The position numbers and the translations under genes were made by a program. Shown here one piece after another: positions 3,448-10,414 of a stretch of DNA of 64,000 bases; the first letter of the stretch is position 1, and the number at the start of each line of letters is the position of its first letter. The stretch is taken from assembly GCF_988243305.1 (NCBI RefSeq), contig NZ_OZ547136.1; one strand, 5' to 3'. The notes under the pieces are model-generated. The model was not told the origin of the DNA and searched no databases. It was given only the letters and a program-made list of their open reading frames with translations.

Positions 3448-4454
3448 ATAATATCCAACTCGCCCACGGCAGCGGCGGCCAGGCGATGCAGCAATTAATC
3501 AACAGCCTGTTTATGGAAGCCTTTGCCAACCCGTGGCTGGCAGAGCAGGAAGATCAGGCCCGTCTTGATCTGGCGCAGCTGGTAGCGGAAGGCGACCGTC
3601 TGGCGTTCTCCACCGACAGTTACGTCATTGACCCGCTGTTCTTTCCTGGCGGTAATATCGGCAAGCTGGCGATTTGCGGCACCGCGAACGACGTTGCGGT
3701 CAGTGGCGCAATTCCGCGCTATCTCTCCTGTGGCTTTATCCTCGAAGAAGGATTGCCGATGGAGACACTGAAAGCCGTAGTGACCAGCATGGCAGAAACC
3801 GCCCGCGCGGCAGGCATTGCCATCGTTACTGGCGACACCAAAGTGGTGCAGCGCGGCGCGGCAGATAAACTGTTTATCAACACCGCTGGCATGGGCGCAA
3901 TTCCGGCGAATATTCACTGGGGCGCACAGACGCTAACCGCAGGCGATGTATTGCTGGTTAGCGGTACACTCGGCGACCACGGGGCGACTATCCTTAACCT
4001 GCGTGAGCAACTGGGGCTGGACGGCGAACTGGTCAGCGACTGCGCGGTACTAACGCCGCTTATTCAGACGCTGCGTGACATTCCCGGCGTGAAAGCGCTG
4101 CGTGATGCCACCCGTGGTGGTGTGAACGCGGTAGTTCATGAGTTCGCGGCAGCCTGCGGTTGCGGTATTGAAATTTCAGAAGCGGCACTGCCGGTTAAAC
4201 CTGCTGTGCGCGGCGTTTGCGAACTGCTGGGACTGGACGCCCTTAACTTTGCCAACGAAGGCAAACTGGTGATCGCCGTTGAACGCAACGCGGCAGAGCA
4301 AGTGCTGGCGGCGTTACATTCCCATCCACTGGGAAAAGACGCGGCGCTGATTGGTGAAGTGGTGGAACGTAAAGGTGTTCGTCTTGCCGGTCTGTATGGC
4401 GTGAAACGAACCCTCGATTTACCACACGCCGAACCGTTACCGCGTATATGCTAA
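3444..4454 (+). CDS. hypE: Hydrogenase maturation protein HypE
   Basis: 336-aa ORF MNNIQLAHGSGGQAMQQLIN... ending ...PRIC; overlaps hypD stop. Confidence 0.93.
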   Translation: MNNIQLAHGSGGQAMQQLINSLFMEAFANPWLAEQEDQARLDLAQLVAEGDRLAFSTDSYVIDPLFFPGGNIGKLAICGTANDVAVSGAIPRYLSCGFILEEGLPMETLKAVVTSMAETARAAGIAIVTGDTKVVQRGAADKLFINTAGMGAIPANIHWGAQTLTAGDVLLVSGTLGDHGATILNLREQLGLDGELVSDCAVLTPLIQTLRDIPGVKALRDATRGGVNAVVHEFAAACGCGIEISEAALPVKPAVRGVCELLGLDALNFANEGKLVIAVERNAAEQVLAALHSHPLGKDAALIGEVVERKGVRLAGLYGVKRTLDLPHAEPLPRIC

Positions 4455-4527
4455 TAAAATTCTAAATCTCCTATAGTTAGTCAATGACCTTTTGCACCGC
4501 TTTGCGGTGCTTTCCTGGAAGAACAAA

Positions 4528-6606
4528 ATGTCATATACACCGATGAGTGATCTCGGACAACAAGGGTTGTTCGACATCACTCGGACACTATTGCAGCAGC
4601 CCGATCTGGCCTCGCTGTGTGAGGCTCTTTCGCAACTGGTAAAGCGTTCTGCGCTCGCCGACAACGCGGCTATTGTGTTGTGGCAAGCGCAGACTCAACG
4701 TGCGTCTTATTACGCATCGCGTGAAAAAGACACCCCCATTAAATATGAAGACGAAACTGTTCTGGCACACGGTCCGGTACGCAGCATTTTGTCGCGCCCT
4801 GATACGCTGCATTGCAGTTACGAAGAATTTTGTGAAACCTGGCCGCAGCTGGCCGCAGGTGGGCTATACCCAAAATTTGGTCACTATTGCCTGATGCCAC
4901 TGGCGGCAGAAGGGCATATTTTTGGTGGCTGTGAATTTATTCGTTATGACGATCGCCCCTGGAGCGAAAAAGAGTTCAATCGTCTGCAAACATTTACGCA
5001 GATCGTTTCTGTCGTCACCGAACAAATCCAGAGTCGAGTCGTTAACAATGTTGACTATGAGTTGTTATGCCGGGAACGCGATAACTTCCGCATCCTGGTC
5101 GCCATCACCAACGCGGTGCTTTCCCGCCTGGATATGGACGAACTGGTCAGCGAAGTCGCCAAAGAAATCCATTACTATTTCGACATTGACGATATCAGCA
5201 TTGTCTTACGCAGCCACCGTAAAAACAAACTCAACATCTACTCCACTCACTATCTTGATAAACAACATCCCGCCCACGAACAGAGCGAAGTCGATGAAGC
5301 CGGAACCCTCACCGAACGCGTGTTCAAAAGCAAAGAGATGCTGCTGATTAATCTCCACGAGCGGGACGATTTAGCCCCCTATGAACGCATGTTGTTCGAC
5401 ACCTGGGGCAACCAGATTCAAACCTTGTGCCTGTTACCGCTGATGTCTGGCGATACCATGCTGGGCGTGCTGAAACTGGCGCAATGCGAAGAGAAAGTGT
5501 TTACCACTACCAATTTGAATTTACTGCGCCAGATTGCCGAACGTGTGGCAATCGCTGTCGATAACGCCCTCGCCTATCAGGAAATCCATCGTCTGAAAGA
5601 ACGGCTGGTTGATGAAAACCTCGCCCTGACCGAGCAGCTCAACAATGTTGATAGTGAATTTGGCGAGATTATTGGCCGCAGCGAAGCCATGTACAGCGTA
5701 CTTAAACAAGTTGAAATGGTGGCGCAAAGTGACAGTACTGTTCTGATCCTCGGTGAAACTGGTACAGGTAAAGAGCTGATTGCCCGCGCGATCCATAATC
5801 TCAGTGGGCGTAATAATCGCCGCATGGTCAAAATGAACTGCGCGGCGATGCCTGCCGGATTGCTGGAGAGCGATCTGTTTGGTCATGAGCGTGGGGCTTT
5901 TACCGGTGCCAGCGCCCAGCGTATCGGTCGTTTTGAACTGGCGGATAAAAGCTCCCTGTTCCTCGACGAAGTGGGCGATATGCCACTGGAGTTACAGCCG
6001 AAGTTGCTGCGTGTATTACAGGAACAGGAGTTTGAACGTCTCGGCAGCAACAAAATCATTCAGACGGACGTGCGTCTAATCGCCGCAACTAACCGCGATC
6101 TGAAAAAAATGGTCGCCGACCGAGAGTTCCGTAGCGATCTCTATTACCGCCTGAACGTATTCCCGATCCACCTGCCGCCACTACGCGAGCGTCCGGAAGA
6201 TATTCCGCTGCTGGCGAAAGCCTTTACCTTCAAAATTGCCCGTCGTCTGGGGCGTAATATCGACAGCATTCCTGCCGAGACGCTGCGCACCTTGAGCAAC
6301 ATGGAGTGGCCGGGTAACGTACGCGAACTGGAAAACGTCATTGAGCGCGCAGTATTGCTGACACGCGGCAACGTGCTGCAGCTGTCATTGCCAGATATTG
6401 TTTTACCGGAACCAGAAACGCCGCCTGCCGCAACAGTTGTCGCTCAGGAGGGCGAAGATGAATATCAGTTGATTGTTCGCGTGCTGAAAGAAACTAACGG
6501 CGTGGTTGCCGGGCCTAAAGGCGCTGCGCAACGTCTGGGGCTGAAACGCACGACCCTGCTGTCACGGATGAAGCGGCTTGGAATTGATAAATCGGCATTG
6601 ATTTAA
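4528..6606 (+). CDS. fhlA: Formate hydrogenlyase transcriptional activator FhlA (sigma54-dependent)
   Basis: ORF contains MSYTPMSDLGQQGLFDITRTLL..., GAF region, sigma54 AAA+ motifs (GETGTGKE, GAFTGA) and C-terminal HTH; start placed at internal ATG giving MSYTP. Confidence 0.92.
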   Translation: MSYTPMSDLGQQGLFDITRTLLQQPDLASLCEALSQLVKRSALADNAAIVLWQAQTQRASYYASREKDTPIKYEDETVLAHGPVRSILSRPDTLHCSYEEFCETWPQLAAGGLYPKFGHYCLMPLAAEGHIFGGCEFIRYDDRPWSEKEFNRLQTFTQIVSVVTEQIQSRVVNNVDYELLCRERDNFRILVAITNAVLSRLDMDELVSEVAKEIHYYFDIDDISIVLRSHRKNKLNIYSTHYLDKQHPAHEQSEVDEAGTLTERVFKSKEMLLINLHERDDLAPYERMLFDTWGNQIQTLCLLPLMSGDTMLGVLKLAQCEEKVFTTTNLNLLRQIAERVAIAVDNALAYQEIHRLKERLVDENLALTEQLNNVDSEFGEIIGRSEAMYSVLKQVEMVAQSDSTVLILGETGTGKELIARAIHNLSGRNNRRMVKMNCAAMPAGLLESDLFGHERGAFTGASAQRIGRFELADKSSLFLDEVGDMPLELQPKLLRVLQEQEFERLGSNKIIQTDVRLIAATNRDLKKMVADREFRSDLYYRLNVFPIHLPPLRERPEDIPLLAKAFTFKIARRLGRNIDSIPAETLRTLSNMEWPGNVRELENVIERAVLLTRGNVLQLSLPDIVLPEPETPPAATVVAQEGEDEYQLIVRVLKETNGVVAGPKGAAQRLGLKRTTLLSRMKRLGIDKSALI

Positions 6607-6650
6607 CAGATGTGGTTATACTCGATCAACATTCAATGAAAGGAGGCAGT

Positions 6651-7079
6651 ATGGCAGTTTCAGCAAGAAATCAATTAACCGGAACGGTTAGCGCAGTAGC
6701 AATGGGCGCTGTGAATGATGAAGTAGAACTGACGCTGGCAGGTGGTGCAAAACTGGTGGCAATTGTGACTCACAGCAGCCAGCAGGCTCTTGGTCTGGCA
6801 AAAGGGAAAGAAGCGATTGCCCTGATTAAAGCCCCGTGGGTCACGCTGGCAACGGAAGACTGTGGACTGAAATTCTCTGCTCGCAACCAATTTGCTGGCA
6901 GCGTGTCGACAATCACCGAAGGCGCAGTGAACGCCACTGTCCATATCAAAACGGATGCGGGTTTTGAAATTGTGGCAGTGGTAACAAATGAAAGTCAGGA
7001 TGAAATGAAACTCACCACTGGCTCGCGCGTTATTGCATTGATCAAAGCATCAGCCATCCTGATTGCCACCAAAGCGTAA
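6651..7079 (+). CDS. Tandem TOBE/Mop-domain (molbindin-like) small cytoplasmic protein, putative molybdate-binding
   Basis: 142 aa from MAVSARNQLTG...; two internally repeated halves (SARNQLTGTVSAV... and SARNQFAGSVSTI...); strong SD AAAGGAGG 6 bp upstream of the ATG. Confidence 0.75.
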   Translation: MAVSARNQLTGTVSAVAMGAVNDEVELTLAGGAKLVAIVTHSSQQALGLAKGKEAIALIKAPWVTLATEDCGLKFSARNQFAGSVSTITEGAVNATVHIKTDAGFEIVAVVTNESQDEMKLTTGSRVIALIKASAILIATKA

Positions 7080-7090
7080 GCGCCTTATTT

Positions 7091-7116
7091 GCCGGAGAGT
7101 ATGGCTCTCCGGCAGA
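7091..7116. terminator. Hairpin between convergent Mop-like gene and ygbA, candidate bidirectional terminator
   Basis: GCCGGAGAG-tatg-GCTCTCCGGC perfect 9-bp stem followed by T-rich tract. Confidence 0.5.
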
Positions 7117-7117
7117 T

Positions 7118-7462
7118 TTATTTCTTTGGACGATATTTTTCTGGCAACTCCGGCACCGGACGCTTGTCATCGATGAGATGACGCACGGTTAAGATCGGAT
7201 GACGCCACAGCATTCGCGGCCCAGCCCAACGCATAATCTGTTTCATCTCTTCACGCTTTGCAGGCTGGTAACAGTGCACCGGACACTGCTTACAGGCTGG
7301 TTTCTCTTCGCCGAACACACATTTATCCAGCCGCTTTTGCGCGTAAGTAAACAACGCCTCATAATGCTCCGGCTCCGCTGACGCCTGCGGGCATTTCGCT
7401 TGATAAAGATCGATCATTTTTTTAATCGTCAGTTTTTCACGAGAGATACGCTTGCCGGACAT
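7118..7462 (-). CDS. ygbA: YgbA, small NsrR-regulon protein of unknown function
   Basis: 114-aa ORF MSGKRISREKLTIKKMIDLYQAKCPQ...; position between fhlA and mutS. Confidence 0.85.
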   Translation of the reverse strand: MSGKRISREKLTIKKMIDLYQAKCPQASAEPEHYEALFTYAQKRLDKCVFGEEKPACKQCPVHCYQPAKREEMKQIMRWAGPRMLWRHPILTVRHLIDDKRPVPELPEKYRPKK

Positions 7463-7480
7463 GCTGCCTCCATACTCTTA

Positions 7481-7503
7481 AGGTGTATTTATATTACAAC
7501 TTA
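7481..7503 (-). promoter_or_regulatory. Candidate NsrR operator upstream of ygbA
   Basis: AAGGTGTATTTATATTACAACTT resembles the 11-1-11 NsrR inverted repeat (AAGATGCATTT-N-AAATGCATCTT), about 17/22 matches, 20 bp upstream of the ygbA start. Confidence 0.4.
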
Positions 7504-7748
7504 ATTTGAAAGGGGACTATGGCTCTGAAGGAGGAGGTTTATTCAACCGACGCAATTTTGCGTACCTGCTTCATAAGCATCACGCAAAAGCTGCAAAACA
7601 GCATCTTTCCCGGAATCACCATCAAGAACTCGCCGTTCGCTTCTTCCCCTGAAATGATTAACTCCGGTATCATGTGCGCCTTATGTGATTACAACGAAAA
7701 TAAAAACCATCACACCCCATTTAATATCAGGGAACCGGACATAACCCC

Positions 7749-10310
7749 ATGAGTGCAATAGAAAATTTCGATGCCCATACGCCCATGATGCAGCAGTATC
7801 TCAAGCTGAAAGCCCAGCATCCCGAGATCCTGCTGTTTTACCGGATGGGTGATTTTTATGAACTGTTTTATGACGACGCAAAACGCGCGTCGCAACTGCT
7901 GGATATTTCACTGACCAAACGCGGTGCTTCGGCGGGAGAGCCGATCCCGATGGCGGGGATCCCCTACCATGCGGTGGAAAACTACCTCGCCAAACTGGTG
8001 AATCAGGGCGAGTCCGTTGCCATCTGCGAACAAATTGGCGATCCGGCGACCAGCAAAGGTCCGGTTGAGCGCAAAGTTGTGCGTATCGTTACGCCGGGCA
8101 CCATCAGCGATGAAGCCCTGTTACAAGAGCGCCAGGACAATCTGCTGGCGGCTATCTGGCAGGACAGCAAAGGTTTCGGCTACGCGACGCTGGATATCAG
8201 TTCCGGTCGTTTTCGCCTGAGCGAACCGGCTGACCGGGAAACGATGGCGGCAGAACTGCAACGCACTAATCCGGCGGAACTGCTATATGCAGAAGATTTT
8301 GCTGAAATGTCGTTAATTGAAGGTCGTCGCGGTCTGCGCCGTCGTCCGCTGTGGGAGTTTGAAATCGACACCGCGCGCCAGCAGTTGAATCTGCAATTTG
8401 GCACCCGCGATCTGGTCGGTTTTGGCGTCGAGAACGCGCCGCGCGGACTTTGTGCTGCCGGTTGTCTGTTGCAGTATGCGAAAGATACTCAACGCACGAC
8501 CCTGCCGCATATTCGTTCTATCACCATGGAACGTGAGCAGGACAGCATCATTATGGATGCCGCGACACGTCGTAACCTGGAAATTACTCAGAACCTGGCG
8601 GGCGGTGCGGAAAACACGCTGGCTTCAGTGCTCGACTGCACTGTAACGCCAATGGGTAGTCGTATGCTGAAACGCTGGCTGCATATGCCAGTGCGCGATA
8701 CCCGCGTGTTGCTTGAGCGCCAGCAAACTATTGGCGCATTGCAGGATTTCACCGCCGAGCTACAGCCGGTGCTGCGTCAGGTCGGCGACCTGGAACGTAT
8801 TCTGGCACGTCTGGCTTTACGAACTGCTCGCCCACGCGATCTGGCCCGTATGCGTCACGCTTTCCAGCAACTGCCGGAGCTGCGTGCGCAGTTAGAAAAT
8901 GTCGATAGCGCTCCGGTACAGGCGCTGCGTGAGAAGATGGGTGAGTTTGCCGAACTGCGCGATCTGCTGGAGCGGGCCATTATCGACACACCGCCGGTAC
9001 TGGTGCGCGACGGTGGTGTTATCGCATCGGGCTATAACGAAGAGCTGGATGAGTGGCGCGCGCTGGCTGACGGCGCGACCGATTATCTGGAGCGTCTGGA
9101 AGTCCGCGAGCGTGAACGTACCGGCCTGGACACGCTGAAAGTTGGCTTTAATGCGGTGCACGGCTACTACATTCAGATCAGCCGTGGACAAAGCCATCTG
9201 GCCCCCATCAATTACATGCGTCGCCAGACGCTGAAAAACGCCGAGCGCTACATTATTCCAGAGCTAAAAGAGTACGAAGACAAAGTTCTCACCTCAAAAG
9301 GCAAAGCACTGGCACTGGAAAAACAACTTTATGAAGAGCTGTTCGACCTGCTGTTGCCGCATCTGGAAGCGTTGCAACAGAGCGCGAGCGCGCTGGCGGA
9401 ACTTGATGTGCTGGTTAACCTGGCGGAACGGGCCTATACCCTGAACTACACCTGCCCGACCTTCATTGATAAACCGGGTATTCGCATCACCGAAGGTCGC
9501 CATCCGGTGGTTGAACAGGTACTGAACGAGCCATTTATCGCCAACCCGCTGAACCTGTCGCCGCAGCGTCGCATGTTGATCATTACCGGTCCGAATATGG
9601 GCGGTAAAAGTACCTATATGCGCCAGACCGCACTGATTGCGCTGATGGCCTACATCGGCAGCTATGTACCGGCACAAAAAGTCGAGATTGGACCTATCGA
9701 CCGTATCTTCACCCGCGTAGGGGCAGCGGATGATCTGGCATCCGGGCGTTCAACCTTTATGGTGGAGATGACCGAAACCGCCAATATTCTGCATAACGCC
9801 ACCGAGTACAGTCTGGTACTGATGGATGAGATTGGGCGCGGGACGTCCACTTACGATGGTCTGTCGCTGGCGTGGGCGTGCGCGGAAAATCTGGCGAATA
9901 AGATTAAAGCGTTGACGTTGTTTGCCACCCACTATTTCGAGCTGACCCAGTTACCGGAGAAAATGGAAGGCGTCGCCAACGTGCATCTCGATGCACTGGA
10001 GCACGGCGACACCATTGCCTTTATGCACAGCGTGCAGGATGGCGCGGCGAGCAAAAGCTACGGCCTGGCGGTTGCAGCTCTGGCGGGCGTGCCAAAAGAG
10101 GTTATTAAGCGCGCACGGCAAAAACTGCGTGAGCTGGAAAGCATTTCGCCGAACGCCGCCGCGACACAGGTCGATGGCACGCAGATGTCGCTGCTTTCAG
10201 TGCCGGAAGAAACCTCGCCCGCGGTGGAAGCGCTGGAAAATCTCGACCCGGATTCACTCACTCCGCGCCAGGCGCTGGAGTGGATTTATCGGTTGAAGAG
10301 TCTGGTATAA
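7749..10310 (+). CDS. mutS: DNA mismatch repair protein MutS
   Basis: 853-aa [43 protein letters not shown]... with Walker [10 protein letters not shown]. Confidence 0.97.
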
Positions 10311-10317
10311 TATTAAT

Positions 10318-10353
10318 GAGCCCCGATTAAACTTCGGGGCTCATATATCTCTT
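10318..10353 (+). terminator. Rho-independent terminator downstream of mutS
   Basis: GAGCCCCG-attaaactt-CGGGGCTC stem-loop followed by a T-rich tract. Confidence 0.6.
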
Positions 10354-10414
10354 ATCCGATAGATAAAAAAGGAGTAAAATAAACACTATTAAGAACAAAA
10401 CATTCAAGAAAAAA

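Follow-up and report, generated by a model that had tools for sequence, protein, structure and literature searches.

The gene at positions 6651-7079 (plus strand) of the 64,000-nucleotide stretch of DNA analyzed here, hereafter the window, encodes a 142-aa protein with two TOBE domains (the di-Mop protein) which, by analogy with ModG of Azotobacter vinelandii, is likely to be a ModG-type soluble cytoplasmic molbindin acting as a molybdate/tungstate store or buffer; we put the probability of this reading at roughly 0.8. The assignment was made from the ORF, Pfam and NCBIfam matches, alignment to ModG and an AlphaFold2 model. An earlier note, made from the letters of the window, had proposed a tandem Mop/TOBE molybdate-binding protein here, and the domain matches, the 49% identity to ModG, the fold and the intact ligand residues described below bear this out. 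The TOBE profile search which it had suggested gave two matches, and the gene is not on record with an unrelated function.

Pfam TOBE (PF03459) was found twice in the protein (E 8.8e-35), as was the NCBIfam Mop model TIGR00638 (E 4e-42; 142 bits against a cut-off of 55). In these searches the two domains spanned residues 2-69 and 73-140 of 142 and no other domain was found. The two halves of the protein share 43% identity (30/69, E 3e-18). A search of the PDB returned A. vinelandii ModG as the best solved relative (E 5e-33), the match being full length, ungapped and identical at 68 of 138 residues, and the next matches were the E. coli ModE di-Mop domain (E 1e-15) and then the single-domain proteins Tub, MopII and Mop. 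The AlphaFold2 model, which was built from 68 diverse homologues, had a mean pLDDT of 97 and a pTM of 0.88. When the model was searched with Foldseek the top matches were the ModG structures 1H9J and 1H9K (TM 0.94-0.95, rmsd 1.4 Å), followed by molybdate- or tungstate-bound ModE di-Mop (TM 0.87-0.89).

Many ABC ATPases that act on other ligands contain TOBE domains, the protein gave weak matches to ModC, WtpC, MalK, PotA and CysA, and several database records label it a 'transporter', all of which would fit a TOBE protein that binds sulfate, some other oxyanion or a sugar, or an accessory of an ABC transporter. We consider this very improbable. The protein has no ATPase domain, TOBE domains of ABC ATPases matched the model only at TM ~0.6-0.7 and 11-20% identity, far more weakly than ModG (TM 0.95, 48%), the Mop-specific TIGR00638 score is well above its cut-off, and the residues which contact molybdate or tungstate are intact. 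An ABC ATPase with a C-terminal TOBE domain, of the ModC, WtpC or MalK type, was also rejected as the identity of the protein, which has no nucleotide-binding domain; the ModC and WtpC profiles were matched over only their last 60-70 positions, far below their cut-offs, and the target-normalised TM was 0.25-0.3.

Gene structure and transcription

The gene begins with an ATG at 6651 and ends with a TAA stop codon at 7077-7079. Its product corresponds to c3292 of CFT073 (RefSeq WP_000301062.1), and an identical copy of the protein is annotated in MEI003, ST131 and CFT073. Upstream lies fhlA (4528-6606, plus strand; assigned by ORF, annotation and synteny), the probable co-transcription partner, which ends 44 nt before the ATG, and downstream lies the convergent ygbA (7118-7462, minus strand; ORF and annotation), a member of the YgbA_NO family. 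A Shine-Dalgarno sequence, AAAGGAGG (6639-6646, plus strand), could be read directly, with AAGGAGG at 6640-6646 located 4 nt 5' of the ATG. The ORF coordinates and this motif confirm the 142-aa ORF with a ribosome-binding site which had been placed between fhlA and ygbA on first reading. The Shine-Dalgarno motif aaaggaggcagtATG is kept in the Escherichia, Citrobacter and Salmonella island copies of the gene.

A longer version of 155 aa, starting from a GTG at 6612, was given by the ORF-finder listing and was rejected. The N-terminus M-A-V-S-A-R-N matches the N-termini of ModG and Tub residue for residue, and the Shine-Dalgarno and ATG are conserved across genera while the upstream extension is not, so that the 155-aa version is not credible.

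The 44-nt spacer between fhlA and the gene (6607-6650, plus strand) was scanned and compared across genera and contains a conserved block, GGTTATACT (6614-6622). This block, of the form GG[CT]TATAC(T), is found 28-35 nt 5' of the ATG in many genera, including the Salmonella copies which are located away from fhlA. Its TATACT (6617-6622) could be the -10 element of a promoter belonging to the gene, from which transcripts would start at about 6629. No -35 element could be recognised, and no canonical sigma-70 promoter was found by a consensus scan of 6300-7800. The ModE operators of K-12 modA and moaA read as CG[CT]TATAT-N7-TACATA[AG]CG, and a ModE operator in the spacer was considered and rejected as unsupported: GGTTATAC fits the left half at 6 of 8 positions, but the right half is either absent or shifted by one base and is not conserved in other genera.

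No terminator-like site was found between fhlA and the di-Mop gene and, with a spacer of 44 nt between the two, the gene would most simply be expressed by read-through from hyp-fhlA transcripts. Transcription would probably occur by such read-through and/or from a weak promoter in the spacer. This pattern of transcription would make the protein abundant under anaerobic, formate-rich conditions, when the molybdo-selenoenzyme FDH-H is made. At the other end of the gene, a hairpin scan identified a terminator with a 14-bp stem and a T-rich run (7087-7117, no strand assigned), located between the convergent di-Mop gene and ygbA. Beyond ygbA and before mutS there is also a 44-aa ORF (7539-7673, minus strand), a RefSeq hypothetical protein (WP_000611937.1 in MEI003) that occurs in variant form in O157, O111 and AQ15 and has no Pfam match.

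Distribution and ancestry of the locus

A 1.2-kb query covering the locus matched 5419 of 5426 complete E. coli genomes, with full coverage in 1888; the remaining genomes gave 57% coverage in two pieces and had no annotated gene between fhlA and ygbA. The variable part is a 473-bp segment made up of the spacer and the ORF (6607-7079), running from just past the fhlA stop codon to the di-Mop stop codon, which is missing in K-12, O157:H7, O111 and ~65% of complete E. coli genomes. It was found in 1892 of the 5426 genomes, as a single copy in each and never on a plasmid. The di-Mop ORF is intact in 1889 genomes and truncated in a few (H90, for example, at 36% coverage), and CFT073 and an O25b:H4-ST131 isolate encode the identical protein. 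In K-12 the distance from the fhlA stop codon to the end of ygbA is 36 bp, without the di-Mop gene, in agreement with the earlier note, which had taken the K-12 spacer to be too short to hold it, and the suggestion that the gene varies among strains was likewise upheld when K-12 and other strains were checked.

The junction is identical in K-12 (phylogroup A), O157:H7 (E), O111 (B1) and strain AQ15, which suggests a single loss event and points to the gene having been deleted once in a lineage which includes K-12, O111 and O157:H7. No repeats or traces of mobile elements were found at the haplotype junction. IAI39 is rearranged relative to K-12, and for this genome PMC7232297 was used. The terminator hairpin is present in both haplotypes, where it has diverged with compensatory stem changes (GGAGAG/CTCTCC versus GGACAG/CTGTCC). 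Over the hairpin and the last ygbA codons (window 7087-7125; 4418-4470 of the K-12 locus) identity falls to ~50% over 55 bp, compared with ~97% in the flanks, and YgbA is 114 aa in the window and 117 aa in K-12, its last codons differing by haplotype. The K-12 hairpin resembles the one located 3' of the di-Mop gene in Citrobacter amalonaticus, which indicates that the terminator is orthologous in the two haplotypes.

Homologues with 69-99% protein identity were found in 40-odd species in a scan of one genome per species. When the flanks were located by tblastn, the order hypE-fhlA-gene, often followed by ygbA, was observed across at least 12 genera of Enterobacteriaceae; it was seen in Escherichia albertii, a cryptic Escherichia clade, Citrobacter, Raoultella, Klebsiella and Kluyvera, and also in Enterobacter, Pluralibacter, Yokenella, Lelliottia and Kosakonia. 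The GC content of the gene is 50.1% compared with 50.5% for the window, and its dS is within the range of the flanking fhlA and ygbA. Relative to ST131 there are 10 synonymous and no non-synonymous differences, and dN/dS is 0-0.1 overall and 0.03-0.10 out to Kosakonia. The synteny across genera, native GC and purifying selection indicate that the K-12 state is a derived loss and not that the gene was inserted in the window strain; judged from these sequence comparisons the gene is ancestral at the enterobacterial fhlA locus and vertically inherited. A recent horizontal insertion in the window strain was rejected on the native GC, the flank-like dS, the cross-genus synteny and the junction free of repeats and mobile-element traces.

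A decaying or functionless remnant would explain the loss from most E. coli, and the absence of the gene from 65% of complete genomes and the truncated copies in a few would agree with this. It is scarcely probable and is largely refuted by the selection analysis, as the ORF is intact in so many genomes, dN/dS stays low out to Kosakonia, and the strong Shine-Dalgarno and the ligand residues are conserved.

The gene is also found in other settings. Outside the Enterobacteriaceae, in Serratia, Cedecea and Edwardsiella, it lies in unrelated neighbourhoods away from fhlA, and the Salmonella copy, which is 89% identical, is not at the fhlA/SPI-1 locus (two Salmonella enterica contigs). The region around the Salmonella copy is island-like, with a fimbrial usher, a CaiF/GrlA-type regulator and an IS21 remnant, and a few genes separate it from an MsrPQ-like molybdoenzyme pair (Oxidored_molyb and Ni_hydr_CYTB). 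Some Raoultella and Enterobacter genomes have the gene after ascF/ascB-like PTS and phospho-beta-glucosidase genes and not after fhlA, and in one Raoultella sp. (positions 5687-8270 of its locus) a sitABCD-like metal ABC transporter is located between the di-Mop gene and ygbA. These Raoultella and Enterobacter loci recall earlier descriptions of the region between fhlA and mutS as a hotspot for insertions.

Presence and absence of the gene in E. coli was published by Ewers et al. (2014, PMC4209514), who used a c3292-mutS PCR and obtained fhlA-mutS amplicons of 1673 bp from CFT073 and 1208 bp from MG1655 and EDL933; the long amplicon was found in B2 'pattern III' strains, the only ones reported to carry c3292. 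The mutS-rpoS region of the window (~10300-15500) is O157:H7-like, with pphB, hydroxyarylic acid decarboxylase subunits D/C/B, a MarR/SlyA-like regulator and rpoS, and no ygbI-ygbN cluster was found in it. The window combines this O157-like architecture with c3292, so that carriage of the gene extends beyond the B2 'pattern III' strains. A gene for a 287-aa Sel1-repeat protein (10415-11278) is located between mutS and pphB in the window, while in K-12 and CFT073 mutS is followed directly by pphB.

Ligand residues and predicted function

The first Mop/TOBE domain (residues 1-69; 6651-6857, plus strand) has the ligand motifs S4-A-R6-N7, G19-A20-V21-N22, T40..S43 and K60-A61, and the second (residues 73-142; 6867-7076, plus strand) has S76-A-R78-N79, G91-A92-V93-N94, T112..S115 and K132-A133. 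In the 2025 structure paper on Tub (PMC11980592) the type-1 tungstate site is formed by the main chain of Ala20-Val21-Asn22, and the type-2 site by Ser4, Arg6, Lys60 and Ala61 of one chain together with Ser40 of the adjacent chain. Each half of the di-Mop protein aligns to Tub without gaps, so the Tub numbering transfers directly, and in this alignment all of the tungstate-contact positions are present or conservatively replaced in both halves. Tub Ser40 is replaced by Thr in both (T40, T112), and ModG likewise has Thr in both domains.

To assess conservation we aligned 76 diverged stand-alone representatives of ~140 aa each, taken from a library clustered at 50% identity. The ligand columns were 85-100% conserved (90-100% for those of the first domain) and were the best conserved in the family, against a mean column conservation of 54% (R6, 77/78; N7, 78/78; K60, 78/78; T40, 74/78; K132, 71/78).

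By analogy with ModG the di-Mop protein would form a trimer, which corresponds to a hexamer in the single-domain Mop proteins. The trimer would bind molybdate, and probably also tungstate, through main-chain and Ser/Thr/Arg/Lys hydrogen bonds, the sequence being unable to tell the two ligands apart, and the predicted oxyanion sites are at the subunit interfaces and on the three-fold axis, with up to ~8 oxyanions per trimer. The likely role would be that of an intracellular molybdate store or buffer serving molybdenum-cofactor enzymes. We found no binding, expression or mutant results for this protein in the literature.

A specific link to formate hydrogenlyase is plausible, its one basis being the conserved neighbourhood within the Enterobacteriaceae. 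The association with fhlA could be historical and not functional, since that neighbourhood is confined to the Enterobacteriaceae and the gene has other contexts in Serratia, Cedecea, Edwardsiella and Salmonella. Any role must be dispensable, as ~65% of E. coli, including K-12 with its fully active formate hydrogenlyase, are without the gene.

The position of the gene directly after that of the formate hydrogenlyase activator in most Enterobacteriaceae also suits a regulatory partner, which would sense molybdate and relay the signal through mixed oligomers with the ModE di-Mop domain or through contact with FhlA, and so adjust the expression of hyc/fdhF, or that of the mod and moa operons, to molybdate. 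The protein has the fold and interfaces of ModE di-Mop (TM 0.88-0.89, 34-36% identity to 1H9S/1H9R), in Rhodobacter capsulatus the small Mop protein is an interaction partner of MopB, the ModE homologue there, and hyc expression in E. coli is molybdate-dependent. We nevertheless judge a regulatory partner to be unlikely. The protein has no DNA-binding or other output domain, both halves have complete ligand sites like those of the storage protein ModG and unlike ModE, and formate hydrogenlyase regulation in K-12 is normal without the gene.

Somewhat less likely again is that the protein is an ancestral molybdate-sensing accessory of FhlA or the formate regulon and more than a passive store; it could, for example, form a hetero-oligomer with the ModE di-Mop domain, or pass molybdate or molybdate status to FDH-H maturation or expression. 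Were this the case, the one-time loss of the gene on the line to phylogroups A, B1 and E (K-12, O111, O157) would have rewired the molybdate dependence of formate hydrogenlyase, and strain-to-strain differences in anaerobic molybdenum economy would follow from it. The reading we prefer is that of a ModG-type store or buffer.

Annotation and comparison with known systems

The kind of gene, its annotation and its strain variability are already on record. Databases annotate the gene of the 473-bp segment as 'TOBE domain-containing protein' or 'molybdopterin-binding protein', and it was labelled 'transcriptional regulator modE' by Lerminiaux et al. (2020, PMC7232297), a misnomer given that the di-Mop protein is without a DNA-binding domain. 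As there is neither an ATPase nor an HTH domain in the 142 residues, the labels 'transporter', 'molybdate transport system regulatory protein', 'molybdopterin-binding protein' and 'modE' are all unfit for this protein.

The present analysis corrects the 'transporter' and 'modE transcriptional regulator' labels and describes no new kind of system, and its importance is modest. It does show that the reference strain K-12 is without a conserved enterobacterial molybdate-binding protein, and molybdenum homeostasis in E. coli has been described without a stand-alone molbindin because K-12 lacks the gene. ExPEC lineages (CFT073, ST131) and many Enterobacteriaceae keep it beside the formate hydrogenlyase regulator under strong purifying selection, and it could contribute, in some strains and not in others, to the buffering of molybdenum or tungsten in the gut or urinary tract.

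Among characterized proteins, the E. coli ModE di-Mop domain (PDB 1H9S, 1H9R, 1O7L, 1B9M) has the same fold as the di-Mop protein at the identity given above, and its first Mop domain has the SARN and KA motifs in common with it. The second Mop domain of ModE has lost its ligand motifs (NADN, FNAD) whereas the di-Mop protein retains its own, and in this it resembles the storage protein ModG and not the ModE sensor domain. The di-Mop protein is also without the N-terminal winged-helix DNA-binding domain of ModE. Identity as the ModE regulator was rejected, as the 142-aa protein begins directly with the Mop motif and scored 88 bits against a cut-off of 369 for the ModE equivalog NF007957, of which only profile positions 124-261 were covered.

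The single-domain proteins MopII of Clostridium pasteurianum (1GUG), Mop of Sporomusa ovata (1FR3) and Tub of Eubacterium limosum (9BEB) are each ~70 aa, and either half of the di-Mop protein aligns to them without gaps (40% identity to Tub, TMt ~0.9), with its ligand positions at the same places. It differs from them in fusing two domains, so that a trimer would take the place of a hexamer. For Tub, tungstate storage in vivo has been demonstrated.

ModG (PDB 1H9J, 1H9K, 1H9M) is the closest of these systems, with 145 aa compared with 142, two tandem Mop domains and, as in the di-Mop protein, complete ligand motifs in both. According to literature cited in PMC11980592, A. vinelandii modG adjoins modEABC and is under ModE control, whereas the di-Mop gene follows fhlA, without mod genes in its vicinity or a convincing ModE operator; the modEABC linkage belongs to the A. 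vinelandii locus and is not a trait of the protein family. The host of the di-Mop protein is moreover a non-diazotrophic enteric bacterium, in which its clients would be molybdenum-cofactor enzymes and not nitrogenase.
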